A stretch of DNA of 64,000 nt. It comes from Planctomycetota bacterium. GTDB lineage: Bacteria; Planctomycetota; OFTM77. The stretch is from the NCBI GenBank assembly GCA_029260795.1, contig JAJDCO010000094.1, forward strand, positions 161,193 to 225,192, written 5' to 3'. Position numbers and translations under genes: made by a program. The notes under the pieces were generated by a model. The model saw only the letters and a program-made list of their open reading frames with translations, made no database searches and had not been told where the DNA came from. The stretch's first letter is position 1, and each line of letters starts with the position of its first letter. Shown piece after piece: positions 26,267 through 53,365 of the stretch.

Positions 26267-26274
26267 ACCGAACG

Positions 26275-29809: not shown

Positions 29810-31084
29810 TCATTGCCAGGAGTATGCCGCCAGGCCGGTGAGCTCTCGAATGAAGATCTCGCGGCCGGACATTGCCAAATGAGCCCAGGTCTCCTGCTCC
29901 GAGACTCCGGCCTGATCCAGAACCTGGTAGGACTCGGGATTCGCCCGCAGCAAGTACAGCCGACCCGAGTCGGCCAACGCCAGGATACGGTCGCCCTGAC
30001 GTACCAGAGACCAGTAGGAGTCGCCAGTCGGAGGCGAGGTCCAACACGTCTCGCCGGTCGGAAGGTGAATGCAGGTGAATCGATTCGCACGCGTGAACAG
30101 ATAGGCATGCTCGTCGATGATCACCGGCGAGGTCATGTAGCCTTGGGTGGAGTTCTGCCAACCGGCCTCGATGTTCCAGCCGGCCTCGAGTCGACTCACG
30201 TTCAGCAGACGAGCCCTCGCGCCGTATGCGGCCGTGAAGATCCCTTCGTCAAAGACGATCGGCGTCAGGATGTTCATGCCGCGAAACGATGGCGTTTGCA
30301 TTCGCCACAGCACCGCGCCCTCCGACTCGCTCACGCCCTGGAGGTGAGTCCGCGACTGCACAACGAGCTGAGGGACACCACCCAGCGTGACACGGACTGG
30401 AGAGGCGAAGGCGCTGCCGTTCATGCCGCCCCCATCTCCCAGCGAGCGCCAGATCTCCTTGCCGGTCTCCTTGTTCAGCTTGACGAAGGCTCCGCCCGCT
30501 TGCACGTAGACCGCGTCGCCCACGACCAGCGGAGAGCAAACGAAGCCAAAGGCCGGGAGGTCGGTGCCTTGATCTTCGGAAAAGTCGACTCGCCAAACCA
30601 CTTCACCCGTCTTCGCGTCGAGGCACACGAGCAGGTCGCACATGCCGGCCACGTAGAGGCGTTGCCCGTCGAACGCAGGCGTCGAGCGCACCCAGGATCC
30701 GTTGCGAGCCGCGAAGAAGGGCACCTTCATGGCCCCCTCCCACTCAATCTTCCACAGCTCGTGCCCCGTTCGACGGTCCAGGGCGCGGACGACCTCGTGC
30801 GTCTCGTCTCGCGTCTCGACCGAGAAGACTCGGTCCGCGGTCACGATCGGCCCCGCGTAGCTCTCCCCGAGCTCGACTCGCCATTGCAGCTTCAGTCGCG
30901 CGTCTCCAAAGCCCTCCGGCCAGGTCGGCCCCGTGAACGTCCCGTCTCGCACCGGCCCTCGCCACTGGTTCCAATCCACGGGAGCGTCGGTCGTCAAAGT
31001 CTCGGCCGTCTTTTGGACGTCGTCATCCGAGAGACCGAATCCGAGTAGCGACAGGAGTCCAGAAGTCAGTGCCAGCGTGATCAT
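29810..31084 (-). CDS. PQQ-like beta-propeller repeat protein (paralog 2)
   Basis: Start set at ATG 31084 (MITLALTSGLLSLLGFG signal); WNQWRGPVRDG motif; propeller repeats. Confidence 0.8.
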   Translation of the reverse strand: MITLALTSGLLSLLGFGLSDDDVQKTAETLTTDAPVDWNQWRGPVRDGTFTGPTWPEGFGDARLKLQWRVELGESYAGPIVTADRVFSVETRDETHEVVRALDRRTGHELWKIEWEGAMKVPFFAARNGSWVRSTPAFDGQRLYVAGMCDLLVCLDAKTGEVVWRVDFSEDQGTDLPAFGFVCSPLVVGDAVYVQAGGAFVKLNKETGKEIWRSLGDGGGMNGSAFASPVRVTLGGVPQLVVQSRTHLQGVSESEGAVLWRMQTPSFRGMNILTPIVFDEGIFTAAYGARARLLNVSRLEAGWNIEAGWQNSTQGYMTSPVIIDEHAYLFTRANRFTCIHLPTGETCWTSPPTGDSYWSLVRQGDRILALADSGRLYLLRANPESYQVLDQAGVSEQETWAHLAMSGREIFIRELTGLAAYSWQ

Positions 31085-31189
31085 GAACCGCTCCAGGGAG
31101 ATGTCGACGACTGAGAGCACCCCGAGATGGGGGACGCGCTGACGTTCGACGGACAGCTCGGGGCAGATTCAGGCAGCGGCGAGGCTCCC

Positions 31190-31909
31190 TCAGTTCGAGC
31201 GCGCCCCGATCGGAATCAGGTAGAGCGGGAGCTCGCGAGGAGACCCCCCCAGCGCCGCACGCACGAGATCGGAATCGATCCCTCCGACGGGCACGGCCCC
31301 CAGATCGAGCGCAGTCGCTTGCAGCAACAGGTTCTGGGCCGCGTGCCCGGCCTCGAGCTGCACGTAACGGGGCGCGATCTCGGCGTCGTACTCCGCGGCC
31401 ATGCGGTCGACGACGCCACACAGCACGAAGACCGCGGGCGCTTGGGCGAGGACCTTCTGATCGTAGGCGGCCGCAGGCAGCGCCGAACGCAGGTCTCCTC
31501 GGCGGTACAAGATCAGGCGATGGTCCTGCGGCTCGTAATGATAAAGGCCTTCCGGCAGCACGATCCACAGCTCGAGTGGGTAAGCGGGTCCAGCCGACGG
31601 CGCCGTGCGATGCCCATCGGCGTCCGTCGTCCCCTGTGCAGCCCAGGCGAGCTGCGAGATCTCTTCACGGCTCAGAGAGCGACCTCCGAACTCACGAATC
31701 GAGCGCCGTTGAGCCAAGACCTCTTCGAGCGACCGCTCCCCTTTCAATCGGGGTGCGGGAAGCTCGATCGTCTCCAGAGCCTCGCCTCGCTCGATCGGTC
31801 CCGAGCCGGTCTCGTCGCCACAGCTCGCCAGCCCGGCGAGCCCAATCAGGAGCACGAGACGACACAGGCCCGTCACTCGGATCACTGAGACTCCCCGGCT
31901 TGGAGGCAC
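31190..31909 (-). CDS. SagB-type dehydrogenase / nitroreductase-family protein (lipoprotein-like signal)
   Basis: 239 aa; nitroreductase-like N-terminal motif RRSIREF...LSREEISQLAWAAQG and SagB-like PSAGPAYP; N-terminal LAGLASCG lipobox-like signal. Confidence 0.78.
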   Translation of the reverse strand: MPPSRGVSVIRVTGLCRLVLLIGLAGLASCGDETGSGPIERGEALETIELPAPRLKGERSLEEVLAQRRSIREFGGRSLSREEISQLAWAAQGTTDADGHRTAPSAGPAYPLELWIVLPEGLYHYEPQDHRLILYRRGDLRSALPAAAYDQKVLAQAPAVFVLCGVVDRMAAEYDAEIAPRYVQLEAGHAAQNLLLQATALDLGAVPVGGIDSDLVRAALGGSPRELPLYLIPIGARSN

Positions 31910-33147
31910 AGCAAGGCTCCGCGCGTCCGGACGAAGAGACGTCCCTGGGACCAGGCGGGAGTCGCCTGTGTGGGCTCACCGAGCTCGAGTCGCTGCAGCA
32001 GGCCAAACTCGGCTGCCGCACGAAGCACGAGCAGCTCGCCCGACGTGGTTCCGATGACGAAACGCTCGCCGATGCGAATCGGGGAGCCGAAGGTCTCGCC
32101 CCCCTCGACGCGCTCGCGCCAGTGGACCTCACCGGTCGAGCGGTCCAAGCAAGACGCCACTCCCGAGTCGCTCCAAAGAAACAGAGCGTCTCCGAGTCCG
32201 ATCGGGCTCGGAACGTAGGGGAGCGCCTGCTGGGCGCGAAAGAGGATCTCGGGCGCTTCCTTCGCCGGGTCGAGTGGGAGACGAACCGTGACGCTCTCCT
32301 TGCCCCCTCCACCGGAGCCTGCAGCCTGGATGAGTGTCCTCCCGACCAAACCAGATGATCCCACGCAGCGTTGCTCGAACAGGTCCTCCAAGGACCACAA
32401 GACCCGCCCGGTGCTCGGCTCGATCCCCGTCAAGCCGTGAGCCGTGCTCGCCGTGACGATCTGGATCGGTCCCCCATCGGGCTCGAAGGCCACGGGCGTC
32501 GCGTACGAGGCGCGAACGCTTCGACGGGGAATCCGCCATCGATCACGACCGGTCGCGGGGTCGAGACCGACGAGAAAGCCGTCTTCGCCCTCGTGCTCCT
32601 TCGCGACGATGAGGACGCCTTGAACGAGCAAGGGCGAAGCGCCACTACCGTGCTGGGCCTGGAAGGCACCCAGGTCTCGACGCCAAGCGGGCTCGCCGTC
32701 CAGCTTCAGAGCCAGCAGCTCGAGCTTCTCACCACTCGTCCAAGAGACATAGAGACGCTCACCGTCCACGGCCGGTGTCGAGGCCGCGAAGCTGTTGAGC
32801 CGGTGTTGCGAGTGGGACTGAAACTCGTACGAGCGCGACCACTGGACGGTGCCCGTTCGCACGTCGAGACAAGTGACGCGGCGTTTTCCGGTGTCGGGCA
32901 TCTCCTCGGTGAGGAAGAGCCGGTCGCCGCGGACCACGGGCGACGAGTGCCCTTGTCCTCCGGTCTTCACGCGCCACACGATCTCGAGCGGTCCCGCGTC
33001 GGCGGGCCATCCGGCATCGACCTGTCCGCGGGCGCCAGGCCCTCGGAAACCGGGCCAGTCCTGACTCGGCCAGCCGAGGCTTCCAAAGAGCAACGAGAAC
33101 ACCAGCAGGCTCATGAGCCACCGGACGAGCCGAACGCCGTGGCTCAT
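31882..33147 (-). CDS. PQQ-like beta-propeller repeat protein (paralog 3)
   Basis: Start set at ATG 33147 (MSHGVRLVRWLMSLLVFSLLFGSLG signal); WPGFRGPGARG motif. Confidence 0.8.
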   Translation of the reverse strand: MSHGVRLVRWLMSLLVFSLLFGSLGWPSQDWPGFRGPGARGQVDAGWPADAGPLEIVWRVKTGGQGHSSPVVRGDRLFLTEEMPDTGKRRVTCLDVRTGTVQWSRSYEFQSHSQHRLNSFAASTPAVDGERLYVSWTSGEKLELLALKLDGEPAWRRDLGAFQAQHGSGASPLLVQGVLIVAKEHEGEDGFLVGLDPATGRDRWRIPRRSVRASYATPVAFEPDGGPIQIVTASTAHGLTGIEPSTGRVLWSLEDLFEQRCVGSSGLVGRTLIQAAGSGGGGKESVTVRLPLDPAKEAPEILFRAQQALPYVPSPIGLGDALFLWSDSGVASCLDRSTGEVHWRERVEGGETFGSPIRIGERFVIGTTSGELLVLRAAAEFGLLQRLELGEPTQATPAWSQGRLFVRTRGALLCLQAGESQ

Positions 33148-33181
33148 GGACCATCTCCTCCTCGAGGGTGAGTCTTCTCGT

Positions 33182-34510
33182 TCAGGCTCCGCTCGCCTCA
33201 CCTTCGCCGCCGCCACTTCGGTGGATTCGCGGGCTCGCCTGACTCGGTGCCAGCGGGCGACCGTGCGAGAGCGGCTCGGGCAGAGTAGCAAAGGCCCTCA
33301 TGTCCTCGAACATCTGACCGAGGCTTTCTTGATAGACATTGCCGATCAGGCAATCCGTCAACGCCCGCCCGTGACTCGGGTGCGCCTTGAGGAAGTCACC
33401 AAAGTTGAAGCTCGAATCATAGAAGGCATAGACCAGTCGGCGCATGGCCTCGATGCCTTCGCAGAACCGATCGCCGTACTCGGTGAAGCGAGCGGCGCTG
33501 CAGTCTCCGTCCTTCAGGGCTTGCTCGACGGCATCCGCAGCCATGACCCCGGACTGCAAGGCCAGGAAGACACCGGAAGAGAAGACCGGGTCCAGGAAGG
33601 CGAAGGCATCGCCGGCGAGCAACAGGCCGTTGGCCGCGCAATGTCGCGATCGGTAGGAGTAGTCACCGGTCACCCGGAAGCTGCCGGCCTGTCGGCCTCC
33701 TCGAACGTGATCCCGAACCCACGGTTGAATGGCGAGCTCGCGCCGAAAGATCTCCTCGGGGTCGCGCGTGCCGCGGTACAGATACTCGCGGTCGGCGACG
33801 ACTCCGACGCTCACGCGATCATTCGCCATCGGGATGTACCAGAACCAGCCCTTCTCGGGCAGGTATGCGACCGTGGTCGCACCGGCATCGACACCGGTGT
33901 CGCGCTGAGCTCCGTCGAAGTAGGTCCAGATCGCGATCTTCTTGAGCACCTGATCCGGGATGCGCCACGAGTTCCGGAGCTGGGAGAAGGTATCCCGACC
34001 GCTGGCATCGATGGTGATGGGCGCATAGACCTCGTAGGTGCCGAGGTCCTTGGAATCGACCTCGAGGCCGGCCACCGAGTCTCCGTCCCAGATCAGCTGC
34101 CGGGCGGAGGTTTCGAACCGAGCCTCGGCTCCTTTCTCCACGGCATTGTCGACCATCAGAGTGTCGAAGTCGCTGCGCACGACCTGCCAGGTCCGCGAGC
34201 TGGGGTGATCGTCATGGTCGACGAAGTAGAAGGGTTTCGAGAGCTTGCCGCCAGTGTCGACGAACTGCACGCTCAGCTTCGGAAAGGCGAAGGCCGCCTG
34301 GTTCATCTTCTCCACCAGGCCCAGCCGATCGAGCGCGAACCAACAGTACGGGATCAAGGACTCCCCGACTCGGTAGCGAGGAAAGCTCTCCCGCTCGAGA
34401 ATGAGGACGGATCGACCGTACTCGGCCAAGACGGCGGCTGTCGCAGATCCTGCCGGTCCGGCGCCAATGACGATGGCGTCGAACTCGACCGGATGAGTCT
34501 TCGAGTTCAT
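33182..34510 (-). CDS. Flavin-dependent halogenase-like FAD enzyme (tryptophan-halogenase family)
   Basis: 442 aa; GxGxxG (IVIGAGPAGSATA), GESLIP region, Lys-containing AAFAFPKLSVQF segment, WxWxIP motif (GWFWYIP), C-terminal FLDPVFSSG motif. Confidence 0.8.
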   Translation of the reverse strand: MNSKTHPVEFDAIVIGAGPAGSATAAVLAEYGRSVLILERESFPRYRVGESLIPYCWFALDRLGLVEKMNQAAFAFPKLSVQFVDTGGKLSKPFYFVDHDDHPSSRTWQVVRSDFDTLMVDNAVEKGAEARFETSARQLIWDGDSVAGLEVDSKDLGTYEVYAPITIDASGRDTFSQLRNSWRIPDQVLKKIAIWTYFDGAQRDTGVDAGATTVAYLPEKGWFWYIPMANDRVSVGVVADREYLYRGTRDPEEIFRRELAIQPWVRDHVRGGRQAGSFRVTGDYSYRSRHCAANGLLLAGDAFAFLDPVFSSGVFLALQSGVMAADAVEQALKDGDCSAARFTEYGDRFCEGIEAMRRLVYAFYDSSFNFGDFLKAHPSHGRALTDCLIGNVYQESLGQMFEDMRAFATLPEPLSHGRPLAPSQASPRIHRSGGGEGEASGA

Positions 34511-34578
34511 GGAGCAAGCTCTTCTGGAGGATCAGGACTCGGAAGCGATCGAGTCGATCCCGGGTGACCGGGACAGCG

Positions 34579-36405
34579 TTATCCGTCTCTTCGTTCACCC
34601 ACGGCAATGAGATGATGCTGAGTCCGAAAATACAAAACACCTTCCGAGAGGGCGGGCGACGCCATCGTCGGATCCTTCAATGAGTTGACCTCGAGAATCT
34701 CGAACTCCGGTCCCAGCTTCACGACGTAAACCTCCCCGTCCTCACTCGCCTGGTACAGCTTCCCGTCTCCAGAAACGCCCGAAGCCGTGAAGCCGTAGCC
34801 GCCCATCTGGGTGTTGGCGAGTCGCTCGCGATAGATCTCGTCGCCCGTTTTGGCGTCGAAGCACGACAGGACACCGAGATCGTTGCAGCAGTAGAGAAGG
34901 TCGCTCGCGACCAACGGCGTCTGCATGTAGTTGCCGCGCCGCATGTGGAACCAGGCGAGGTCCTTACTGGTCGGCAGCGTCGAGAGCTTACCGCTGGCAT
35001 CGAGCGGAATCGCATAGATCGGCGCGTGGCGTCCATGCGCATTCGTGATGTAGGCGAGGTCATTCGCGACGATCGGTGTCGGGACCGGGATGTCCCCGCC
35101 CCCTTCCAACCACCAGAGCGCCTCTCCCGTCTCGAGGTCATATCCGCCGATGTGCTTCCAGCCATTGCAGATCACCTGCGACCGCTGCTTCCCGACGTGC
35201 ACGGTCGGCGTTCCCCAGGTGGGCACTTCCTCACGCTCGGTGCGCCAGAGGTCTTCGCCCGTCTCGAGCGACAAGGCCCCCACCCACGACTGCGCTTGAA
35301 TGTCGACCTGAAGGATGATCTTGTCCTCGTGGATGACCGGTGAGCTCGCGAAGCCCCACTGAGCCTGCGGCATCGAGAAGTAGCCCGAGTCCAGGAGACC
35401 GAAGTCCTCGCGCTTCCACAGCAGCTTGCCATCGCGGTCGTAGCAGTAGAGCCCTTCCGAGCCGAAGAACGCGACCACACGATCGCCGTTCGTCGCGACC
35501 GACGAGGCGGCGTGGCTGCCCTTGGGATGCCGCTTCACCTGGGGCATCCCGCCCCACGCCGTCTGCGACCACAGCAGATTGCCCGTGTGCTTGTCGTAGC
35601 AGAGCACACGAAACGTCTGAGCGCCTTCGTCTTCCACCGGCGCGATCGAGCCGTACAACCCGACCTTGAGCTCGGCCTCACCTTCGTTCGCACCGACCGC
35701 CGTCGTCAGGTAGAGACGTTCGCCCCAGATCACGGGGCTCGAGTGCGCCAAGCCCGGAACGTCGATCTTGAAGACGACGTTCTCGCCGCTTTCGACGTTC
35801 CACTTCGTCGGCAGCGGATACCCGTCGGAGTGGCCTCGAGCCTGCTCGCCGCGGAAGGCCGGCCAGTTGCCGTCGCCCTTATCTGTGGGAGCCGGACCGT
35901 CACTCGCCTCGGCCCGCTTCTCGAGGCGCCCATACATCTGGCCACCATGGTCGCCCGCATCCCAGATGCCCGCGTATTGTCCGCGGAAGAACACGACGCG
36001 CGCGGAGAACGTGCCCATGCCCGGCACCGGCACGTCCGTGAGCGTGATGACGGGCGTATCTCCTGCCCACTTCACCTTGACGGGTGCCGGCCAGACCGAG
36101 TCCGTCTTGCCGTACTGGATCCGGGCCGTGATCAGCCAGAGGTCCCCGATCATCTTGCGCGCACCCTGAATCGAGTAGCGCTCCTCTTGCGGGGCCGTCT
36201 TTTGACCCGTGACGGTGAAATGTCCGACCAGGTCGACTCCGGTCAGCATCTGGGCGAACTCGTCCTCGAGACGCTCACGGTCGTTCGGCTTGGCCGTCTC
36301 GGGGGGCGGAGCCGACTCGTCGGTTTCGGTTTGAGCGATCAACGGCAACGTGCCGACACCCAAGACCAGCAGAACGACAGCCCGGGCGAGCCAGTGGCGG
36401 ATCAT
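34579..36405 (-). CDS. PQQ-like beta-propeller repeat protein with ~170 aa N-terminal extension (paralog 4)
   Basis: 608 aa; signal peptide; extra N-terminal domain, then WPAFRGEQARG and propeller repeats. Confidence 0.8.
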   Translation of the reverse strand: MIRHWLARAVVLLVLGVGTLPLIAQTETDESAPPPETAKPNDRERLEDEFAQMLTGVDLVGHFTVTGQKTAPQEERYSIQGARKMIGDLWLITARIQYGKTDSVWPAPVKVKWAGDTPVITLTDVPVPGMGTFSARVVFFRGQYAGIWDAGDHGGQMYGRLEKRAEASDGPAPTDKGDGNWPAFRGEQARGHSDGYPLPTKWNVESGENVVFKIDVPGLAHSSPVIWGERLYLTTAVGANEGEAELKVGLYGSIAPVEDEGAQTFRVLCYDKHTGNLLWSQTAWGGMPQVKRHPKGSHAASSVATNGDRVVAFFGSEGLYCYDRDGKLLWKREDFGLLDSGYFSMPQAQWGFASSPVIHEDKIILQVDIQAQSWVGALSLETGEDLWRTEREEVPTWGTPTVHVGKQRSQVICNGWKHIGGYDLETGEALWWLEGGGDIPVPTPIVANDLAYITNAHGRHAPIYAIPLDASGKLSTLPTSKDLAWFHMRRGNYMQTPLVASDLLYCCNDLGVLSCFDAKTGDEIYRERLANTQMGGYGFTASGVSGDGKLYQASEDGEVYVVKLGPEFEILEVNSLKDPTMASPALSEGVLYFRTQHHLIAVGERRDG

Positions 36406-36515
36406 CCGTCCTTCTCCTCAAATCGATCGGCGTCACGGGGAGGCGCCGAGGTCCGGACCCCGGCGAGCGAGCGAAGTGCCCATTCTACGGTCAACTCGTT
36501 GCCGATGTTGAATCT

Positions 36516-40582: not shown

Positions 40583-40597
40583 GCTCGGGATCTCCGC

Positions 40598-41152: not shown

Positions 41153-41178
41153 GGGGCACGTGTCCTTTCAGTTCATTC

Positions 41179-41670: not shown

Positions 41671-41731
41671 GTTCACTCGACCGGAGAAAGGGAATCGTTC
41701 GCGCACAACGTGACGCCGACGACCTCGGGGG

Positions 41732-43078: not shown

Positions 43079-43099
43079 CTCGGCCCACTCCAGACGGCC

Positions 43100-44434
43100 T
43101 CACGCATAACGCGCATTGCGGTGCTCCGAGCGGAAGAAGCGCGGCAACAGCTCATCGATGCGAAGTAGAGCGTCGCGCGTCACGTCAACCGCCTGCTCCG
43201 TCACCTTGAAATCACCCTGCGCCTCGAGCTCGGCCAGAGGCTCGGCGAAGCGTTGGCGCGGATCCTCCCCAAACTTCTGACGGAAGTACTCCAGCGGCAA
43301 GTGGCCGAGCTTGAGCTGCAAGATGAACTCTCGCACGAACTGCTCATCCTTCGTGAGCACCAGCGCCCGATGAATCGGAAGCTCGCCTCGCTCGACGCGT
43401 TCCACGTAGGGCTCGTAACGATGCTCGTTCTGCAGATGAACACCGCCGAGATGGCCGAACGACGACACGCCCAGGCCGATCAGATCTGCGCCCGTCCACA
43501 GCGCATCGCGATACCGGAACTCGATCCCCTCACCCTTCTTGGCCGTGGTGACCGAACCGATCTGGTATCCCGCCCGCTCCAGGGCAGCGTAGGCCTCTTG
43601 AGTCCAGCGTCGCTTGGTGGGCCAGTCGGCGACGGGAGCGACCTGCGTTCCGCCCTCTTGCATGCGCTGATAGATCGTCGTGTTGTACGGGACCTCGAGC
43701 TGATAGATGGTCACGTTGTCCGGCTCGAGCTTCAGCGTCTCCTCGATACAGCGGCGCCAGTTCTCATCCGTCTCGCCGACCATGCCGGCGATCAGATCGA
43801 TGTTGATCTGTTCGAAGCCGACATCCCGCGCCGTCTGGTAGGCGCCGTAGATCTCCTTGGCTCGATGGGCGCGGTTGTTGAGCGCGAGGATCTCGGCATT
43901 GAAGTTCTCGACACCCAGGCTCAGTCGCGTCACACCCAGCTCGTGAAGGACCTCGATCTTCTTCGTCTGCAGCGTGCCCGGCTCACACTCGAAGGTGACC
44001 TCCTCGGCCTCTGACCAGTCGAAGATGTCGCGCAACCCTTCGAACAGGAATCGGAGCTGATCCGGGGAGAGGTAGGACGGCGTGCCACCCCCGAAGTAGA
44101 CGAGCTTCGGTTGGCGACCTACGAGATAGGGCTGCTCGGCGTAGAGCCGTGACTCGGTCAGGACCGCATCGAGGTAGCGACGAACGTCTTGGGCGTTCTT
44201 GTCGGTGTAGACCTTGTAGTAACAGAAGTCGCAGCGCTTTCGGCAGAACGGAATGTGCACGTAGAGACCGAGCATCGGCGGAGACTCGGCCCCTTCCGAG
44301 AGAAGCTGGAGGACTCTCGGGACTTGGTCTTCTCGCCAGAACGAGAAGGGCGGGTAGTTGGCGATGAAGTAGTTACCGACCGTCGTCTCTTCTGTGGAAG
44401 GACCTGGGCTCTTCGGCTCATCGGAGCTCATCAA
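43100..44434 (-). CDS. Radical SAM enzyme, HemN-like (oxygen-independent coproporphyrinogen-III oxidase family; class-C radical SAM methyltransferases share this fold)
   Basis: 444 aa; CxxxCxxC cluster motif (CRKRCDFCYY), GGGTPS motif, C-terminal HemN_C-like region. Confidence 0.83.
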   Translation of the reverse strand: MMSSDEPKSPGPSTEETTVGNYFIANYPPFSFWREDQVPRVLQLLSEGAESPPMLGLYVHIPFCRKRCDFCYYKVYTDKNAQDVRRYLDAVLTESRLYAEQPYLVGRQPKLVYFGGGTPSYLSPDQLRFLFEGLRDIFDWSEAEEVTFECEPGTLQTKKIEVLHELGVTRLSLGVENFNAEILALNNRAHRAKEIYGAYQTARDVGFEQINIDLIAGMVGETDENWRRCIEETLKLEPDNVTIYQLEVPYNTTIYQRMQEGGTQVAPVADWPTKRRWTQEAYAALERAGYQIGSVTTAKKGEGIEFRYRDALWTGADLIGLGVSSFGHLGGVHLQNEHRYEPYVERVERGELPIHRALVLTKDEQFVREFILQLKLGHLPLEYFRQKFGEDPRQRFAEPLAELEAQGDFKVTEQAVDVTRDALLRIDELLPRFFRSEHRNARYA

Positions 44435-45630
44435 CGACCTCGTTTCTTCTCACCGGACTTCTGATCCGACTCACCGAACACGTACAGCAGTCCGTCATTG
44501 GCGCCGATCAGGATGCGACCGCCCGCCACGGCGGGCGAGGAGAAGATCGACTGGCCGATGTCGTACGACCACGTCTCTTCGCCCGTTGCGGCATTCAAGA
44601 CATACAGGCGGCCATCCGCCGAGCCGAAGACCACGCGGTCGCCACAGAGCACCGGCGAGGCGTCGATCTTGCGTCGCGTCTTGAACGCCCACACCTCTTC
44701 GCCATCGGCGAAGCGAACGCAGTGCAGCTTCTTGTCACGACCCCCGAAGTAGACGAGGTCCTCGCCGATCGCGGGTGACGAGAAGAAGGCGTTCCGGCCG
44801 TCGCCGAACGACCAGACCTCCTCGCCTTTGTTCAGATCGAGGCGCACGAACGCGTTGCCGTAGTGGCCGAAGAACGCTTGGTCGCGATCGACTCCGACCG
44901 AGCCCGCGATGTAGCTCTCGGCTCCCATGTCGAGCTGCGACTGGGCTTGCCCCTCGGCGAGGGACACCACGTGCAGGCGAGCGTCACAGCCGCCAAACAC
45001 GATCTGATCGTTCCAAACCGCCGGCGTTCCGTTGACGTAGTTCTCCGTCTCGTAGCGCCACACCGGCTCGCCCGTCTTCGCATCCAGACAGTAGAGAGCG
45101 GAGTCGTAGCTCCCGAACACGACGCGACGGCCCTCAGCCGACTCGAAGAGCGTCGCTCCCCCTTGAACCTTGTCTCCGGTCTCGAACTTCCAGCGCAGAT
45201 CCCCCGTCTTCTTGTCGAGGGCGTAGAAGAAGCCGTCCGTGGAGCCGACGTAGACCGTGTCCCCGCTTACGGTCGGGGGCGCCTCGATCATGTCCTCCGT
45301 CGCGAATCGCCAGAGGCCGCGGCCGGTCTCGAAGTCGATCGCGTGGAGGTGGTAGTCGTCGGAGCCCACAAACACTCGCCCGCCCTCGATCACTGGAGAA
45401 GAGGCGATGGCGGCTTCCGTTGCGTACGTCCAGAGCAGTCGAGGCTCCGCTGGGAGTCGCCCCGAGGCGACTCCGGTCTGACTCGGATTCCCGCGGAAGC
45501 TGGGCCACTCGCTCGAGGTCGGGGAGGCAACCGGCTTCGCCGTCGGCTCTTGAGCGCAGATGGCTCCGGACACCAGCATGCCGACCATCAGGAGCGCCAA
45601 CGCCAGAATGCGATCGCCTCGTCGATTCAT
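44431..45630 (-). CDS. PQQ-like beta-propeller repeat protein (paralog 5)
   Basis: Start set at ATG 45630 (MNRRGDRILALALLMVGMLVSGAICA signal); WPSFRGNPSQTG motif; 4-nt overlap with the HemN-like gene. Confidence 0.8.
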   Translation of the reverse strand: MNRRGDRILALALLMVGMLVSGAICAQEPTAKPVASPTSSEWPSFRGNPSQTGVASGRLPAEPRLLWTYATEAAIASSPVIEGGRVFVGSDDYHLHAIDFETGRGLWRFATEDMIEAPPTVSGDTVYVGSTDGFFYALDKKTGDLRWKFETGDKVQGGATLFESAEGRRVVFGSYDSALYCLDAKTGEPVWRYETENYVNGTPAVWNDQIVFGGCDARLHVVSLAEGQAQSQLDMGAESYIAGSVGVDRDQAFFGHYGNAFVRLDLNKGEEVWSFGDGRNAFFSSPAIGEDLVYFGGRDKKLHCVRFADGEEVWAFKTRRKIDASPVLCGDRVVFGSADGRLYVLNAATGEETWSYDIGQSIFSSPAVAGGRILIGANDGLLYVFGESDQKSGEKKRGR

Positions 45631-45702
45631 CTCCACCTCACTCGTCAACCGGGTCTTTCGGGGGTTCATCGGGTCTAAACCATGATCTGCCAAGGTGCAA
45701 GC

Positions 45703-46881
45703 TCAACGAGTGCCATGGAGGGCCTCGCCGTACAAGGCCCGCAGCGAAGCCCGATCGACCGGCCGCGGATTGAAGCCGCCCGTCCACTGCTCGGCGGCCA
45801 GCTCGGCGAGCCCATCCAAGTCGGATTCAGCCACGCCGCATTCGGCCAACGATTCGGGCATCCCCGCCGCGTCCAGAAGCGCACCGATCCGTCGAGCCAG
45901 GCGATCGGCGGACTCGGAAGCCTGTCGGTCCCCGACAGCTGATGGATCGAAGAGCTCGGCGTAGAGCCGGGCGACGGCAGGATCCTCGGCATTGAAGCGC
46001 ACCACCGTGGGCAGCATCAGCCCGACGGCTCGACCGTGCTCGGTGTCGAAGCGAGCGGTGAGCGGATTGGCGAGCGCATGCGCCGCGCCCAGCATGCTCG
46101 CCTCGATCGCGAGACCCGCGAAAGCCGAGGCGAGGAGCATTCCACCGCGAGCCGTGTGGTCGCTCGGCGCCGAGAGCACCGTCTCCAAGTGTCGATTCAC
46201 AAGGCGAAATGCCTCCTTCGCCCAGAGCGACGAGACGGGATTTCGGCGGCTGGTGACGAAGGACTCGACGGCGTGCGTCAGGGTATCGATACCGGTGTGG
46301 GCGGTAACGTGAGTCGGCATCGTCTCGGTCAGCACCGGATCGAGCAGGGCGATGCGCGGCTGGGCGCTCGGGTCCCCGCACGCCATCTTGCGGTGGGATT
46401 CCAGCTGCGAGATCAGCGCGAAGGATTGTACCTCGCTGCCCGTGCCTGCGGTCGTCGGGACCGCGATCATCGGGAGGAGAGGCGTCGCGACCGGCCCACT
46501 TCGCCAGTAGTCCTTCATGCTTCCACCATTGGTCAGCAGGAAGTTCGCACCCTTGGCGGTATCGAGGCTGCTCCCGCCACCGAGGCCGAGGATCAGGTCC
46601 GGAGCGTGTGGCGCCGCGGCCGCTCGACAGCGCTCGACATCCTCGGTGGTCGGATTCTGATGAACCTCCGAGAAGACGGCGGTCGGCAAGCCGGCGGCCT
46701 CGAGCGCGGCTCGCACGGGCTCGACGTGCCCCGCGGCGACCAGACCGGCATCACTCACGAGCAGGACGCGCCGCGCGCCCAGCGATCGACAGAGCTCGGG
46801 AATCCGGGCGGCCGCGCCTACACCGAAGACGAGACGCGGGCCGAGCGCGAGATCGAATTCGGCAGGCGGATCCGGAGTCAT
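45703..46881 (-). CDS. Iron-containing (group III) alcohol dehydrogenase
   Basis: Start set at ATG 46881 (MTPDPPAEFDLALGPRLVFGVG...); Fe-ADH motifs (GLGGGSSLDTAKG, metal-binding His region HTGIDTLTHAVESF). Confidence 0.85.
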   Translation of the reverse strand: MTPDPPAEFDLALGPRLVFGVGAAARIPELCRSLGARRVLLVSDAGLVAAGHVEPVRAALEAAGLPTAVFSEVHQNPTTEDVERCRAAAAPHAPDLILGLGGGSSLDTAKGANFLLTNGGSMKDYWRSGPVATPLLPMIAVPTTAGTGSEVQSFALISQLESHRKMACGDPSAQPRIALLDPVLTETMPTHVTAHTGIDTLTHAVESFVTSRRNPVSSLWAKEAFRLVNRHLETVLSAPSDHTARGGMLLASAFAGLAIEASMLGAAHALANPLTARFDTEHGRAVGLMLPTVVRFNAEDPAVARLYAELFDPSAVGDRQASESADRLARRIGALLDAAGMPESLAECGVAESDLDGLAELAAEQWTGGFNPRPVDRASLRALYGEALHGTR

Positions 46882-46891
46882 GGACGGTCGA

Positions 46892-48334
46892 TCACCATTG
46901 GGCGGCACGCTGGATGGCCCGACGCGCGTAGAGGAACTCGAACAGGTTGCCTTCGTGGGGCTGATCCCACTCGACATGGCCGGTCGGAACGGGACCCAGG
47001 TTGAGCCGATGGATCTCCGGCGAGCGCAGCAGCCGGCTCTGCAGCACGGTGTTCTTCGTGATCGCCGAGACGACCAAGGACGGGCCGAGCGTCTCGATCC
47101 ACTCGTCTTCGGGCAGCTCGACCACACTGACGTACGGAAACAGGAACTCGGTGTTGGCAAGTGGGTGATCGAAGCGTTGGCAGCGGACCACGGTCGGAAG
47201 CAGGTAGGTGGAGCCCTCGACCTCGACTCGGCGCGGCCCGGTTCGAAATCGTGCGGTCAGGTCTTCGGCGCCGCCTTGGGCCAGACCGGCATCGATCGTA
47301 CTGTCAATCCACTCGGCGACCTTGGGGTTGGCGAAAGCCGAGAGCTGCGCCTCGGGATCGGCCGCCGGTCGAGCTTCGATGCGGGCGAGGCGCTCGGCGA
47401 GCGCCTCGGCGATCTCGTCGCCGTGCGCGGGCACGATGATGGCCGAGGCGTTGACGCAGCTGCGCCCGCCGTTCGCCGCGACCGAGTCGGCGAGGACGTC
47501 CAGGTGATCTCGCCACCGCTCGATCTCGTCGGACCCGACGAGCACCTTGCTCCAGCCGGGACCATGGATCTCGATGCCCGGGTTCTGCGCATACTGAGCG
47601 GTCGTCTTCGCATCACCGAAGATCAAGCCGCGTCCACACTGCTCGAGGATCGACGCCGCGCCCTCATGATCGGTCGGGTAGTAGCTGAAGGCCTCGCGGG
47701 GCGCCCCCGCCTCGATGAAGGCCTGCATGATGCGGAGGGGTGTCCAGGGCTCCTCGCGGCCCGGCTTGAGCACGACCGGTATCTTGAGCGCCAGCGCCGG
47801 AATCCAGAGCGAGTTCACGCCCGGCGAGTTGCTCGGGAGCACGATGCCCAGGCTGTTCGTCTGCGGAACGTAGGAGACCGGGACGCCGTCCTGCTCGCCG
47901 ATCCCCGCCTCGAGCACCGACAGATCGAGGCCCCGTGTGAGGCCTTTCAGGATGCGCGGCATCTCCGCGAAGACGCTGTGGATCTTGTCCATGTTGCGGC
48001 GACACAGCACATGGGGAAGACCGCTGGTAGCGCTGAGCGTCTCGACGTACTGCTCGGGACCCTGTCGATCGCCCTGGTCGTTGAGCGGCAGCTCGGCCTG
48101 CATGAACAGCTCACCGGCTCGGCGACAGACGTCGATCATCTCGACGACGCTGAGGTCGGCGAATGGATCGGGACTGCGCTCTTGCTTACGCAGATCGCGA
48201 CGCACCAGGCCGGCATTGACCTGGCTGACCAGGGCGAGGGGTGTGCCATCGCGATGCGAGCGGACCTCGTTGGTCTCGAGGCTCTCATAGAACTGGCCCG
48301 CACGCAGTGCCGGAATGGGAATCGGCTTCGACAT
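46892..48334 (-). CDS. Aldehyde dehydrogenase-superfamily protein, acyl-CoA reductase (LuxC)-like
   Basis: Start set at ATG 48334 (MSKPIPIPALRAGQFYESLE...); ALDH-like fold with candidate catalytic Cys (GGRSCVNAS). LuxC-like assignment is by family recollection and the LuxE/PaaK-like neighbour. Confidence 0.75.
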   Translation of the reverse strand: MSKPIPIPALRAGQFYESLETNEVRSHRDGTPLALVSQVNAGLVRRDLRKQERSPDPFADLSVVEMIDVCRRAGELFMQAELPLNDQGDRQGPEQYVETLSATSGLPHVLCRRNMDKIHSVFAEMPRILKGLTRGLDLSVLEAGIGEQDGVPVSYVPQTNSLGIVLPSNSPGVNSLWIPALALKIPVVLKPGREEPWTPLRIMQAFIEAGAPREAFSYYPTDHEGAASILEQCGRGLIFGDAKTTAQYAQNPGIEIHGPGWSKVLVGSDEIERWRDHLDVLADSVAANGGRSCVNASAIIVPAHGDEIAEALAERLARIEARPAADPEAQLSAFANPKVAEWIDSTIDAGLAQGGAEDLTARFRTGPRRVEVEGSTYLLPTVVRCQRFDHPLANTEFLFPYVSVVELPEDEWIETLGPSLVVSAITKNTVLQSRLLRSPEIHRLNLGPVPTGHVEWDQPHEGNLFEFLYARRAIQRAAQW

Positions 48335-48339
48335 GGTGC

Positions 48340-49416
48340 TCAGTACACTCCTTCGACGATCTTCTCTTCGTTGGCCCGAAAGGGTCGGACCTCGCCGACG
48401 CCATCCCACGGGTATTCGTCGTAGGGCCGGCGCCGGATGGCCTCATCTCGCTCGAGAAAGCGCGGCATGAAGAACTCGCGCGTCAGCGTCGTGAGCTCGA
48501 CTCGACCCCAGGCATCGTAGTCGACCAGCTCGTCGGTCGCTTCGGGCTGAACCACGCGCAGAACCGCCCGTGGCTGAGGCGCATGATAGGTCACCGAGTA
48601 GCCGTCCTCGCGCAGGGTCGGCTTGGAGTGCGCCAGACCCATCAGCGTGTTGCCGTAGGTCGGAACGAGCTTGACCTCGTCCTCGAGCACCTCCTCGACC
48701 AGGAAGCGCAGGATCTGCGGGGACATCTCGGTGCCTCCACAGAAGACTCCCTGGATGCCGGCTTCGGGGATCGAGACGCGCTCGCTGAGCGCCTCGAGGA
48801 GCTTGGGCGTCGTGAACAGCGCACTCACCTTCCGATGCTTCAAGATCGTGACGGCCTGATCGACGACGTGGACCATGTAGGCCTTGGCTTGATCCCCATG
48901 CCCTTCACGAATCAGCCGCTTCACCCAGCGCGGATCGAGATCGATGAAGTAGCAAGAGCAGCCGCGGACGTTGGCGAGGTGCTCGATCGAGAGGCGAAGA
49001 CGTCGCGGCCCGGTCGGGCCCATCATCAGCCAGTAGTGGTTCCGCGGGAACGCGTCGTCGTCGAGCGTCTCCGAGAACTCGCTGTAGTCGATCTTGTAGT
49101 CTTCCCAGCCGATCCGCTGCTTGGGCATGCCGGTCGTGCCGCCGGTCTCGAAGATGGTGAACGGCTTCCCCGCGTAGGCTTTCGGCGCAAAGCGCTCCGG
49201 TTGCTCGACGCGCAGGTGCTCCCCATCGAAGTGGCCGAAGCGGACGAGATCGTCGAAGCCTTGCACTTCGTGCGCGGGATCCCAGCCCGCCTTCTGTGCC
49301 CACTCGAGCCAGAAGGGGCTGCCCGTCTCGGGCGAGAAGTGCCACGGGACGATCTCGCGGATGTGCGCATCCAGCTGGGCGCGAGCTTGCTCCGGATCCT
49401 GGGGACGCGTGCTCAT
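48340..49416 (-). CDS. LuxE/PaaK-family adenylate-forming enzyme (acyl-protein synthetase / phenylacetate-CoA ligase-like)
   Basis: 358 aa; PaaK-type nucleotide-binding motif FETGGTTGMPK; 4-nt overlap with the upstream symporter. Confidence 0.72.
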   Translation of the reverse strand: MSTRPQDPEQARAQLDAHIREIVPWHFSPETGSPFWLEWAQKAGWDPAHEVQGFDDLVRFGHFDGEHLRVEQPERFAPKAYAGKPFTIFETGGTTGMPKQRIGWEDYKIDYSEFSETLDDDAFPRNHYWLMMGPTGPRRLRLSIEHLANVRGCSCYFIDLDPRWVKRLIREGHGDQAKAYMVHVVDQAVTILKHRKVSALFTTPKLLEALSERVSIPEAGIQGVFCGGTEMSPQILRFLVEEVLEDEVKLVPTYGNTLMGLAHSKPTLREDGYSVTYHAPQPRAVLRVVQPEATDELVDYDAWGRVELTTLTREFFMPRFLERDEAIRRRPYDEYPWDGVGEVRPFRANEEKIVEGVY

Positions 49417-51020
49417 TGAGGGTTCTCCACGATGCGTGCCGCCTCATGGACGGCGAAGAAACGATCGACGACGGCGGGGCTGGGGGGCTTCGTCACGAGC
49501 GAGACTCCGACCAGAGTCAGCGCGGAAGCGGCAAAGATATAGACGACGGGCAGCACGCCACCGAGGACGAGGTACTCGTCGGCACCGCGCAGCGTTCCCG
49601 CGATCGCGGGCGCGATGAGCCCGTCATAGAAGAAGGCCGACCACACTCCGACCATCACGAGGACGGAAGCGATAGCGCCTGCCTTGGTCGTGCGTCGCCA
49701 GTACACGGCACAGAACACGAGCGGGAACAGGCTGGCGAAGCCGCTGAAGCACCAGACCGCGAGGTCGAAGATGTTGGGCGGCTTGAGCAGCGACAGAAAG
49801 TAGGTGATCGCGACGATGGCGACGATGAAGCCGCGTCCCAAGAGGAGCTTCCCCCGATCAGTGAGACGGTCCTCACCCACCGCGTGCAGGACGATGTCGT
49901 GCGTGAACATCGTGCCCAGGCAAACGAACTGCGAGTCCATCGAGGACATGATCGCCGCCAGGATGCCCGCCGTGAGGAGCCCGGTCAGAATCGGATTGTG
50001 GAGCAGCTGGTTCACCATCAACGACAAGACGGCGTTCGGGGTGGGCGCCTTGATCCCGTGGCCGGCCGCCCAGATGCCGATCAAGATGCAGGGCACCCAC
50101 ACGATCATGATGAAGATCGGGTGCGCGATGATACTGAGCCGGAAGGTCTTCGCGCTGCGAGCGGTCAGCCAATGCTGGAAGAGGTGCGGAAACATCCCCA
50201 CCGAGAACGGGACCAGCATGTAGCTGAGGAACTGGGCCTTCCCGATCATGCCGTCACGGGTGAGATGATCCTTCGCGTTGTCCTTCACCGCTTGGGTCGC
50301 CGCTTCGAGTCCCCCGAGCCGATCGGAGATCAGCAGGAAGGCGACCACTCCCATGATCATGAAGACCAACGTCTGGAAGGTGTTCGCCCAGGCGGCGCCG
50401 CGCAGCCCGCCACCCGAGATGTAGAAGAGCACTACGGCGCAGACGACCAGGCCTGAGAGCCAGGGGGGCACCGAGCCCACCATGATCATCTTGCCGGCCG
50501 GGTTCAGACGCCCTTCGAAGACGTCCGGGAACATGCCCTGCGTCACGCCTTCCATCACCACTCCGGCGCCCAGCACCCCGATCAAGAGGTACGGGATCAC
50601 CAGCAGGACGAGGATCGGAAACAGTAGGTAACCCAGGCCGTTCGATTCGAAGCGATCGCGGAAGTACTGGATCTGCGTGACGTAGCCGTAGCGCTTGCCG
50701 ATCGCCCACAGCTTGATGCCGACCACGAAGAAGATCAGCGAGTGGATGATGCCCGACGAGGACGCCATCAATCCGTATACGCCGACGCCGAGCTGGTAGG
50801 CCTTGCCCGTCGATCCGACCAGTGCGAACGCGGTCATGGTCGTGCCGAACACGCTCATCAGGAGCAGGAACGGACCGATCGAGCGCGTGGCGACGAAGTA
50901 ATCCGAGCTCGTCCCGCGAAAGAAGCGCTTCGAAACGACGCCGAGCCCGATCAGCAGCATCAGGTACCCGGCGATGACCCACAAGGGACCCAAGTCGCCG
51001 ATCACGGCCAGCGGAGTCAT
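49413..51020 (-). CDS. Sodium:solute symporter family (SSF) transporter
   Basis: Start set at ATG 51020 (MTPLAVIGDLGPLWVIAGYL...); ~13 TM helices with SSF-like organisation. Confidence 0.87.
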   Translation of the reverse strand: MTPLAVIGDLGPLWVIAGYLMLLIGLGVVSKRFFRGTSSDYFVATRSIGPFLLLMSVFGTTMTAFALVGSTGKAYQLGVGVYGLMASSSGIIHSLIFFVVGIKLWAIGKRYGYVTQIQYFRDRFESNGLGYLLFPILVLLVIPYLLIGVLGAGVVMEGVTQGMFPDVFEGRLNPAGKMIMVGSVPPWLSGLVVCAVVLFYISGGGLRGAAWANTFQTLVFMIMGVVAFLLISDRLGGLEAATQAVKDNAKDHLTRDGMIGKAQFLSYMLVPFSVGMFPHLFQHWLTARSAKTFRLSIIAHPIFIMIVWVPCILIGIWAAGHGIKAPTPNAVLSLMVNQLLHNPILTGLLTAGILAAIMSSMDSQFVCLGTMFTHDIVLHAVGEDRLTDRGKLLLGRGFIVAIVAITYFLSLLKPPNIFDLAVWCFSGFASLFPLVFCAVYWRRTTKAGAIASVLVMVGVWSAFFYDGLIAPAIAGTLRGADEYLVLGGVLPVVYIFAASALTLVGVSLVTKPPSPAVVDRFFAVHEAARIVENPQ

Positions 51021-51292
51021 GCCGCACCTCCCGAGCTCGCGTCGTCTTCTTGGGCCGCCCACGCTTCGAGCTCACTCGGCCAGGCGAAGCGCACCACCAA
51101 GGCCCAGACGATCCCGGCAGCAATCGAGATCCCGGCGTGGTAGGCCAGCCCCAGCGGCAGAAAGCCGAAGATCAGCGAGTCGTTCGACCAGTTCCACAGG
51201 TCCTGGCGCAGGATGGCGAGCACCCCGACCAACGACCACACGATCCACCACGCCGTTGGGCGACGGCTTCCACTCATTCCATCGACTCCCAT
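51017..51292 (-). CDS. Small membrane protein, DUF3311-like (class commonly encoded upstream of sodium:solute symporters)
   Basis: 91 aa; two hydrophobic helices (WWIVWSLVGVLAIL..., GLAYHAGISIAAGIVWALVV); ATGA overlap with the symporter start. Confidence 0.55.
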   Translation of the reverse strand: MGVDGMSGSRRPTAWWIVWSLVGVLAILRQDLWNWSNDSLIFGFLPLGLAYHAGISIAAGIVWALVVRFAWPSELEAWAAQEDDASSGGAA

Positions 51293-51716: not shown

Positions 51717-51762
51717 GCCGGCTGTCCGTAATCATCGTCGGTCGACCGCCGGCTTCCCGTCC

Positions 51763-53157: not shown

Positions 53158-53365
53158 CGGGATTCTCCTGGAATTCGTCGCAGCGGCGTTGGGCGAGCCG
53201 CGATCATCGCAAAGGAACGCGGGTCCGAGAAGCGCCGTTCGGCCTCGAGGTGACGCCACGACGTTCCCACCACGGCTCTCGACGGAGCCCCTTGCCCCGA
53301 CTGCGGTGCCCGAGGACACTAGGGGCCGGTCCGACGCGCTCGCCCACCGATTCGGGAGGCTGTCC

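Follow-up and report, generated by a model that had tools for sequence, protein, structure and literature searches.

What do seventeen genes that all point one way do together, when they range from a symporter and an acid-reducing enzyme pair to a radical S-adenosylmethionine (SAM) enzyme, a glycosyltransferase, a halogenase-type enzyme, an ABC transporter and several secreted beta-propellers? The question is raised by a 64-kb stretch of DNA from a Planctomycetota bacterium (the window; all coordinates below are window positions), in which 17 open reading frames (ORFs) on the minus strand span positions 29810-51292. We number them g1 to g17 in the direction of transcription. The first-pass annotation of this DNA had described a co-directional array, which the ORF listing and the translations confirm, and had read it as one neighbourhood for the uptake, activation and reduction of an acyl chain, followed by tailoring, glycosylation and export. 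After scanning all 17 proteins against Pfam and NCBIfam and comparing the array with related loci, we keep this logic, with which all the families are consistent, and we drop the acyl chain, for which there is no evidence. We propose that several modules, held together across phyla, make up the locus and convert an organic acid, probably of the 4-hydroxybenzoate type, into an exported product; we give this reading a probability of about 0.42. Each part belongs to a known family, none of the array genes reaches an NCBIfam equivalog cut-off, and the combination maps onto no described pathway, above all the joining of an EhpF/EhpG-type reductase with a double-FtsX ABC transporter and conserved propellers.

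That the genes form one functional neighbourhood is borne out by other genomes. We compared about 90 related loci (L-numbers): neighbourhoods of g3 homologs and 78 loci that a g7 scan of species-representative genomes had yielded, compared by tblastn and ORF clustering, and loci anchored on g10 (L087-L091). The nearest relatives of the array genes are metagenome-assembled genomes (MAGs) of Planctomycetota. In Planctomycetota, Verrucomicrobiota and a few Acidobacteriota-labelled bins, fifteen of the 17 genes (g1-g14 and g17) turn up again as a group, and we regard these fifteen as the conserved system because g16 has no homolog and g15 no clear ortholog there. The recurrent order is a set of propellers followed by DUF3311-SSF-g3-g4-g5-g6-g7-(f3-g14)-g8-g9-g10-(f10)-g11-g12, where f3 and f10 are two families of the sister loci, and it is found in Phycisphaerae and other Planctomycetota, in Opitutaceae (L022) and other Verrucomicrobiota, in Kiritimatiellia and in a few Acidobacteriota-labelled bins. 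The linkage is kept despite inverted or permuted blocks in L015, L017 and L021. Since this synteny is conserved in other phyla, the arrangement is not a product of chance.

The related loci also show how the array is built. A basal version (L087, L091) holds only a transporter, g3, g4, g5, g6, the GT4 gene, g10, the ABC and FtsX genes and two propellers; the radical SAM enzyme, the halogenase and the thioesterase are absent from it and are optional. A reduced Verrucomicrobiota locus, L004, consists only of an MFS transporter, g3, g4, g5, a g6-like propeller, the radical SAM enzyme and f3. Four modules can be told apart: M1 comprises g1-g6; M2 comprises g7, g14 and g9, together with f3 and f10 in relatives; M3 is g8; and M4 comprises g10-g13 and g17. 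Conservation is extreme in g3, which is 72-74% identical between the window and loci of Phycisphaerae, Verrucomicrobiota and an Acidobacteriota-labelled bin, with g4-g7 at 42-64% in the same loci, while a second g3 subtype, 49-59% identical, occurs in Gemmataceae and Pirellulales. There are more than 8000 g3 homologs, the best 120 of which range from 71 to 88% identity, with Phycisphaeraceae and Verrucomicrobiota among their sources. Where source names are given, the homologs of g3 and g10 come from Planctomycetota and Verrucomicrobiota, and one Acidobacteriota MAG is found among the f3 homologs.

The first module would take up an acid and reduce it. The small protein g1 (51017..51292; likely start 51277, 86 aa) scores 32.9 bits with Pfam DUF3311 against a cut-off of 30 and is assigned as the small membrane subunit of the sodium:solute symporter g2 (49413..51062; likely start 51020, 535 aa; Pfam SSF, E 1.6e-33), which is 58-70% identical in sister loci. 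The g1-g2 pair recurs in L002, L006, L007, L087 and L091. In L004 the MFS transporter stands in place of g2, and its top score is with the aromatic acid/H+ symporter family, though far under the cut-off.

The next two genes had been called LuxE- and LuxC-like, and here the first-pass domain calls, mostly right elsewhere, do not hold. Neither LuxE (PF04443) nor LuxC (PF05893) gives a Pfam match to g3 or g4 at E<=0.01, and the relation to EhpF and EhpG, two enzymes with which Pantoea agglomerans makes the phenazine D-alanylgriseoluteic acid, is much stronger. In Pfam, g3 (48340..49416, 358 aa) has a weak AMP-binding match of the PaaK/F390-synthetase kind. Its best and only solved relative is EhpF (3l2k/3hgu, E 7e-42), with which it aligns end to end (residues 18-358 with 23-366 of 366), and it is 35% identical to an EhpF-like protein of an E. 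coli phenazine plasmid. Because g3 and EhpF are both about 360 aa long, neither has room for the C-terminal ANL domain, and g3 is assigned as an EhpF-type adenylating enzyme with the ANL N-terminal domain only. The EhpF structure paper of Bera and colleagues from 2010 is said to report that EhpF lacks the C-terminal domain, and reportedly proposes that EhpF and EhpG convert phenazine-1,6-dicarboxylate to a 6-formyl compound.

Its partner g4 (46892..48409; likely start 48334, 480 aa) starts 5 nt downstream of g3 and is a divergent protein of the aldehyde dehydrogenase (ALDH) fold (Pfam Aldedh). It aligns over its full length with the ALDH-like proteins encoded after EhpF-like genes (E 3e-33 and 1e-33; identity about 24%), whereas its best match among ordinary ALDH structures is merely partial (E 7e-13). 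It keeps the nucleophilic Cys in GGRSC (residues 289-293) and, at the position of ELGGK in ordinary ALDHs, it has HGPGWSK; the EhpG-like proteins have the Cys in common with it, as well as a Gly/Pro-rich motif at that position. In ordinary ALDHs the Glu of ELGGK is the general base of hydrolysis, and a nucleophilic Cys in its absence would suit a reductase better than an ALDH that oxidises. On plasmids of E. coli, Burkholderia and Streptomyces, each EhpF-like gene has an ALDH-like gene next after it, and some homologs carry the PGAP label "arylcarboxylate reductase". Judged from these alignments, g3 and g4 are a predicted EhpF/EhpG-type ATP-dependent aryl-carboxylate reductase. The gene after them, g5 (45703..47160; likely start 46881, 392 aa), is an iron-containing alcohol dehydrogenase (Fe-ADH and ADH_Fe_C in Pfam) under every NCBIfam equivalog cut-off; it is 47-55% identical in sister loci, always next after g4, and as a standard enzyme of its family it would take the aldehyde to the alcohol.

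An archaeal counterpart of g2-g3-g4 is found on plasmid 2 of Halalkalicoccus jeotgali B3 (L094, 7508-11566), where a sodium:solute symporter, an EhpF-like protein annotated as hypothetical and an EhpG-like ALDH form a trio beside an IclR regulator and catabolic-looking genes. Because the trio sits on a haloarchaeal plasmid, uptake coupled to reduction appears to be an old, portable unit.

Which acid would enter this unit? The sister loci offer a clue. Family f3 (about 190 aa) adjoins the halogenase gene in 31 of them and lies almost always between the radical SAM gene and the halogenase gene. Pfam gives essentially no match to f3, many members of which are named chorismate-pyruvate lyase by JGI. 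An AlphaFold2 (AF2) model (pLDDT 93) has the chorismate-lyase fold, and Foldseek pairs it with the DUF98 structure 2nwi (TM-score 0.65/0.77) and with UbiC (1jd3/1fw9). Aligned with E. coli UbiC, f3 keeps SMT, R76, PLG, GR and E155; the Arg and the Glu (R77 and E156 in E. coli UbiC) are invariant, and Arg76 and Glu155 are the product-binding residues of UbiC. On its modelled fold, f3 is a putative UbiC-like chorismate lyase family. Family f10 of the sister loci is a PaaK-type aryl-coenzyme A (CoA) ligase, and it co-occurs with the thioesterase g9 (41179..41904; likely start 41670, 163 aa), a hotdog protein of the 4HBT/YbgC type (4HBT_2, E 2.6e-10) with an ETDMAGIMH motif near its N-terminus. 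Because sister loci carry a UbiC-like lyase, a PaaK-type ligase and a 4HBT thioesterase, an aromatic acid is likelier than an acyl chain, and a 4-hydroxybenzoate-type acid is most likely the substrate. Neither f3 nor f10 was found in the 64-kb window; considering that an importer is present while lyase and ligase are absent, the acid is probably imported here or made elsewhere in the genome.

The remaining tailoring enzymes fit such a substrate. The flavin-dependent halogenase-type enzyme g14 (33182..34510; Trp_halogenase/CmlS-like) has as relatives in the Protein Data Bank (PDB) the halogenases 8zop, CndH, Bmp2, PltA and CmlS (E 1e-43 to 6e-56), and it is nearest to the phenol/pyrrole-type enzymes Bmp2, CndH, PltA and CmlS. 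The halogenase motifs looked for are all present (GxGxxG as GAGPAG at 16, the conserved Lys as K78, WxWxIP as WFWYIP at 222), and g14 is 48-60% identical in 29 sister loci, usually directly after f3. The halogenating activity of g14 is predicted; none of the array genes was recognised as a flavin reductase.

The radical SAM enzyme g7 (43100..44434) matches Pfam Radical_SAM (E 2.3e-22) and HemN_C and resembles HemN over its full length, with HemN (1e-44) and NocN, a class C methyltransferase (7e-30), as its PDB relatives. Its CxxxCxxC motif lies at residues 64-71 (CRKRCDFCYY) and its GGGTP at 115. The HemN motif, CxxxCxxCxC, has a fourth Cys, and g7 lacks it. With 203 bits against the hemN model TIGR00538 (cut-off 325), and under the cut-offs for the hemN, HemW, HutW, HemZ and STM4012 models, g7 is ruled out as a true HemN or HemW; it may instead modify the aromatic substrate by C-methylation or by a HemN-like side-chain reaction. 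It has the motifs and the HemN_C domain of the HemN and class C methyltransferase group (NocN/NosN, ChuW/HutW, HemW) and differs from that group in its fixed neighbours, a secreted propeller and, in relatives, the chorismate lyase and the halogenase. The GT4 glycosyltransferase g8 (41732..43078; Glycos_transf_1 and Glyco_transf_4), over no NCBIfam equivalog cut-off, is 40-52% identical in most full clusters, basal ones included.

A variant g7-like neighbourhood occurs in Gemmataceae and other Planctomycetota (L033, L038, L040, L045, L074, L075, L078), where the radical SAM gene is followed by a GcvH-like gene, a 4Fe-4S gene, a squalene-hopene-cyclase (SHC)-like gene, a polyprenyl synthase gene, UbiC-like f3, two GT4 genes and a 4HBT thioesterase gene. 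This suggests a pathway to an aryl-terpenoid or a terpenoid glycoside that has parts in common with the window system.

The product of such chemistry would leave through the module g10-g12. The first of these, g10 (40598..41152), is a small membrane protein with five transmembrane (TM) helices that matches no Pfam or NCBIfam family. Its AF2 model shows 5 helices (pLDDT 69) and found no Foldseek match against the PDB, so that the JGI label "DMT-like permease" is the only name left for it. Among its 6636 homologs the best 120 are 62-83% identical, and in the loci anchored on g10 it always lies directly upstream of the ABC/FtsX pair. The ATPase g11 (39854..40582; ABC_tran) scores 252 bits with the LolD model, against a cut-off of 308, and 206 bits each with YbbA and MacB. 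Its cognate permease g12 (36516..39857) is a 1113-aa protein with FtsX twice and MacB_PCD, under every NCBIfam cut-off; hydropathy predicts about 10 TM helices and two large periplasmic domains near residues 43-504 and 761-987, of about 460 and 225 residues. In L006, L060, L087, L088 and L091 the identity to g12 is 42-49%. The MacB-type architecture supposed before thus holds. The export complex that the name implies is not established as classical MacB-type efflux, because no MacA-type adaptor and no TolC is encoded in the array, nor a LolA- or EnvC-type partner; the HlyD/MFP and TolC/OEP families have no match among the 17 genes or the flanking genes, and the sister loci have no membrane-fusion protein or outer-membrane channel either.

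The module can stand without the rest. In L087, L088 and L091 the series g10-ABC-FtsX is followed by g17-like and g13-like propellers. In L088 (8526-17780) the series g10-ABC-FtsX-propeller-propeller comes after a gene of the FAD_binding_4/ALO (vanillyl-alcohol-oxidase) family, without reductase or GT4 genes, and this locus may supply the same export machinery by another route.

We take the secreted propellers to be probable core partners of the ABC/FtsX module, a point absent from the first-pass annotation. What type VII ABC systems work on is a partner or substrate in the periplasm, and dedicated periplasmic partners are the rule among them; it is for this reason that we propose the propellers as the partners of g12. 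Each locus has four to six of them, and three orthologous lines (g6, g13, g17) are conserved. The 8-blade propeller g6 (44431..45693; likely start 45630; PQQ_2/Beta-prop_ACSF4) scores 202 bits with PF13570 against a cut-off of 133 and has a clear ortholog (32-57% identical) directly upstream of the radical SAM gene in most loci; all orthologs have a signal peptide and many a lipobox-like Cys. Downstream of the permease lies g13 (34579..36405; PQQ_2), a secreted propeller of 608 aa, about 180 of which form an additional domain at the N-terminus, whose orthologs in L006, L087 and L088 are 54-58% identical and, in L087 and L088, also lie downstream of FtsX. The secreted propeller g17 (29810..31120, about 430 aa; PQQ_2, E 2.3e-35) has orthologs 52-55% identical directly downstream of FtsX in L087 and L091. 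The membership of the secreted propeller g15 (31882..33291; likely start 33147; PQQ_2, E 1.4e-24) is uncertain: it has no clear ortholog in the related loci, and its identity to propellers of other loci is 22-31%.

These proteins are BamB-like in size, and the PF01011 model matches only short stretches of them. Genuine dehydrogenases dependent on pyrroloquinoline quinone (PQQ) are ruled out by the quinoprotein models, since the propellers score 20-90 bits with TIGR03075 (cut-off 480) and at most 47 with TIGR03074 (cut-off 833). In the g6 family, blade 4 has a GGCD..H motif whose C236, D237 and H241 are conserved in at least 90% of members; N221, Y274, R319 and D320 are further conserved residues, and the mature N-terminus carries a conserved DWPxFRG motif, which the remaining propellers of the locus have as well. 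In L002 (Phycisphaeraceae; 2024-4192), a siderophore-type TonB-dependent receptor, with 198 bits against a cut-off of 223.5, is encoded amid the upstream propellers.

Taken together, the families suggest the following course. The DUF3311/SSS symporter g1-g2 would import the acid, which sister loci would also make from chorismate by the UbiC-like lyase. Optional tailoring by g14 and g7 would take place probably on the CoA thioester, from which g9 would then release the acid. Next, g3 would adenylate the carboxylate, g4 would reduce it to the aldehyde, the Fe-ADH g5 would turn the aldehyde into a benzyl-type alcohol, and g8 would attach a sugar to that alcohol. The product may cross the inner membrane via the 5-TM protein g10 and be handled in the periplasm by the ATPase g11 and the 10-TM double-FtsX permease g12, with g6, g13, g17, perhaps g15, and two propellers encoded beside the array as putative periplasmic partners. 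Families, motifs, conserved synteny and modular build are observed; the substrate, the sequence of steps, the direction of transport and what the propellers do are inferred from them. It is a concrete prediction that the substrate class is hydroxybenzoate-type and that the product is a possibly halogenated benzyl-alcohol glycoside.

Several points weigh against this course. Genes for a carrier protein, a flavin reductase, a membrane-fusion protein and an outer-membrane channel are all missing from the array, and the window has no UbiC-like gene; because it has no PaaK-type ligase either, CoA-dependent tailoring would lack a visible ligase here. The evidence for an aromatic substrate comes from accessory genes and not from the core, because L087 and L091 do without the radical SAM enzyme, the halogenase and the thioesterase. 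The proposed course gives no reason for as many as four to six secreted propellers, and an identity of 72-74% across phyla, as in g3, is unusual for an enzyme of specialised metabolism. Finally, SHC-like cyclase and polyprenyl synthase genes adjoin g7, f3 and GT4 genes in Gemmataceae and g10 and f10 in a verrucomicrobium, which hints at a lipid aglycone.

These weak points are where other explanations enter. The locus could serve the assimilation or detoxification of an external organic acid: propellers, with a TonB receptor in some relatives, would capture the compound, the symporter would import the acid, g3-g5 would reduce it for use or disposal, and the ABC/FtsX pair would serve the periplasmic side. 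The 4-nt overlap that couples the transporter g2 to g3 agrees with this, as do the substitution of an importer of another class (MFS) in L004, the symporter-EhpF-EhpG trio standing alone beside IclR and catabolic-looking genes on the haloarchaeal plasmid, the TonB receptor amid the L002 propellers, and basal loci free of biosynthetic tailoring genes. Reducing an acid to an alcohol at the expense of ATP and NAD(P)H is, however, costly and unusual in catabolism; the basal set includes a GT4 glycosyltransferase, sister loci synthesise the acid by their UbiC-like lyase, the halogenase is a biosynthetic enzyme, and the array has no ring-cleavage or beta-oxidation genes. We hold assimilation to be a possibility of some weight, if on balance an unlikely one. 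The hint of a lipid aglycone leads instead to an envelope glycolipid pathway, in which a lipid acid or terpenoid would become a lipophilic alcohol, be glycosylated by the GT4 enzyme, flipped by g10, extracted by g11-g12 and carried to the outer membrane by the propellers. Cyanobacterial heterocyst glycolipids, which are fatty-alcohol glycosides exported by the MacB-type DevBCA, offer a precedent, and the LolD top score of g11 (252 bits), the extractor-type architecture of g12, the many lipoprotein-like g6 orthologs and the relatives in which g10, f10, f3 and GT4 are accompanied by genes for an SHC-like cyclase and a polyprenyl synthase all agree with it. Against this, g3 and g4 have no LuxE/LuxC match and are nearest to an aryl-acid reductase; we know of no SSS transporter that imports long-chain fatty acids; the UbiC-like lyase, the PaaK-like ligase, the 4HBT thioesterase and the phenol/pyrrole-type halogenase point to an aromatic substrate; and the array has no acyltransferase, acyl carrier protein or ketosynthase gene. 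A glycolipid pathway therefore seems to us quite unlikely.

The unexplained propellers invite a reading of their own, in which the cytoplasmic enzymes would make a ligand or prosthetic group, g10 and g11-g12 would deliver it to "empty" PQQ-like propellers, and these would thereby become active. With four to six secreted propellers per locus and conserved g6, g13 and g17 lines, with an invariant polar Cys-Asp...His cluster in one blade of the g6 family, with propellers that fail all PQQ-dehydrogenase models, and with g3 (72-74%) and g10 (63-73%) conserved at a level more typical of core functions, such a supply route has its appeal. We nonetheless doubt it and rank it below the glycolipid pathway: BamB-like propellers are usually scaffolds and not enzymes, and the tailoring genes differ between loci, a poor fit to a fixed cofactor. 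In its boldest form, the enzymes encoded nearby would produce a glycoside of an aromatic alcohol that serves the secreted propellers as ligand or prosthetic group, the type VII ABC/FtsX pair and its 5-TM partner would energise or load the propellers, and these would be the true effectors of an unrecognised envelope machine of Planctomycetota and Verrucomicrobiota, an idea we also think quite unlikely to prove right; that the propeller/ABC machine is new in kind has a minority chance. It remains to ask whether the array is a mosaic of unrelated operons that happen to be neighbours on the same strand. Internal promoters could fit into the gaps of 110, 72 and 68 nt, g16 has no counterpart and g15 no clear ortholog elsewhere, and sub-modules do separate, in L088 (only g10-ABC-FtsX-propellers) and in Gemmataceae (the radical SAM gene with other partners). 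Yet in several phyla 15 of the 17 genes are found together time and again and come back together after rearrangement, and four junctions are start/stop overlaps; the synteny data nearly exclude a mosaic, which we consider very improbable.

How far does the proposed conversion of an aromatic acid into an exported product resemble systems already described? Among the closest is the EhpF/EhpG pathway, whose griseoluteic acid chemistry includes a later reduction to a hydroxymethyl group. The window locus is without the phenazine core genes phzA-G, its pair sits amid transporter, Fe-ADH and propeller genes, and the substrate here cannot be phenazine-1,6-dicarboxylate. LuxCDE follows a similar scheme, in which an acid is activated with ATP and a protein of the ALDH fold then uses NAD(P)H to reduce it to the aldehyde; it differs in that the nearest relatives of g3 and g4 act on aromatic acids, and no LuxD-type acyltransferase is encoded in the array. 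Among type VII ABC systems (MacAB-TolC, LolCDE, FtsEX, YbbAP, BceAB) the likeness lies in the coupled LolD/MacB/YbbA-like ATPase and FtsX permease with a MacB-type periplasmic domain. BceB and YbbP have a duplicated FtsX and about 10 TM helices, as g12 does; E. coli YbbP has 804 aa, and g12, with its two large periplasmic domains, is larger. The neighbours of g12, a 5-TM protein and two or three secreted propellers, set it apart from all of these. A logic of lyase plus halogenase is known from Bmp6/Bmp5 and from Ab5/Ab10 of the ambigol pathway. In Planctomycetales strain 10988, the genes baaA/baaB have been proposed to follow this logic towards 3,5-dibromo-p-anisic acid (bioRxiv 10.1101/723874). 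Sister loci likewise place the UbiC-like lyase directly upstream of the flavin halogenase-type gene, whereas the window has the halogenase-type gene and no lyase; BaaB is described as Bmp5-like and g14 is Bmp2/CndH/PltA-like, which sets them apart by description only, and the description of the baa locus speaks of a core of two genes and mentions no reductase, glycosyltransferase, ABC or propeller genes.

Our literature search found no published description of the cluster, and the words halogenase, PQQ and radical SAM are not present in a recent review of planctomycetal secondary metabolism. In these under-studied groups few descriptions exist, and the proteins of the locus are named "hypothetical" in their sources, yet it is one of the conserved loci with a wider distribution there. 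Its synteny gives many "PQQ-like" secreted propellers a first functional context, namely an ABC/FtsX machine and a small-molecule pathway, and it takes the EhpF/EhpG reductase type, which has been little studied, beyond phenazine antibiotics to a role that is broad and possibly physiological.

The fine structure of the array is compatible with expression as a unit. Gene calls on an independent assembly of the same DNA (Logan SRR15505515) match those used here; in g5, g9 and g15 the longest ORFs run past the likely starts, which leave 392, 163 and about 421 aa. The short gaps and overlaps reported before are largely real. Because the junctions overlap with the chosen starts, translational coupling is real at g1/g2 (-4 nt), g2/g3 (-4), g6/g7 (-1, and not 4 nt as had been reported) and g11/g12 (-4). 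The other junctions measure +5 (g3/g4), +10 (g4/g5), +72 (g5/g6), +21 (g7/g8), +61 (g8/g9), +26 (g9/g10), +15 (g10/g11), +110 (g12/g13), +68 (g13/g14), about +34 (g14/g15) and +69 nt (g16/g17), and the overlap once seen between the SagB-like gene and the propeller g15 holds, at -28 nt (g15/g16), only if a GTG start is used. The G+C content is uniform (63-68%), and scans with promoter and terminator consensus sequences gave no signal above shuffled background. A single transcript is plausible.

The SagB-type dehydrogenase g16 (31190..31909), counted among the tailoring enzymes in the first-pass annotation, does not keep that place. It matches Nitroreductase (E 5e-28) and the SagB domain model TIGR03605 (83.3 bits, cut-off 78.4), and tblastn found no homolog of it in L001-L084 or L087-L091; it is probably outside the conserved system. 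Its LASC lipobox is a lipoprotein signal, which would put a flavoenzyme-type protein outside the cytoplasm. A pathway to a ribosomally synthesised and post-translationally modified peptide of the thiazole/oxazole-modified microcin class, which a SagB-like gene next to a radical SAM gene might suggest, was rejected: there is no YcaO gene and no precursor peptide among the array and flanking genes, and g16 is a non-conserved, predicted lipoprotein.

Beyond the array, two further propeller genes on the plus strand are possible members. One, at 52760..54640 (PQQ_2, E 5.7e-27), has weak similarity (24-30%) to the large upstream propellers of sister loci; the other, at 27871..29166 (PQQ_2, E 2.9e-26, with a signal peptide), is convergent with g17 and 25-30% identical to propellers of about 430 aa in L002, L004 and L024. 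The first is abutted by a 358-aa ORF at 51682-52758 (plus strand), divergent from g1, which has no Pfam or NCBIfam match and no homolog in related loci and is overlapped by a 574-aa ORF on the opposite strand; it may not be a real gene. Downstream of the array, at 23438-27753 on the plus strand, a protein of 942 aa that combines cytochrome c motifs with a PA14 domain is followed by a 523-aa propeller resembling DUF7133 and glucose-sorbosone dehydrogenases. The Rfam scan gave no riboswitch or other leader RNA upstream of g1; its sole match, and the sole RNA gene detected in the window, is a tRNA-Glu with anticodon TTC at 13480-13557 on the minus strand.

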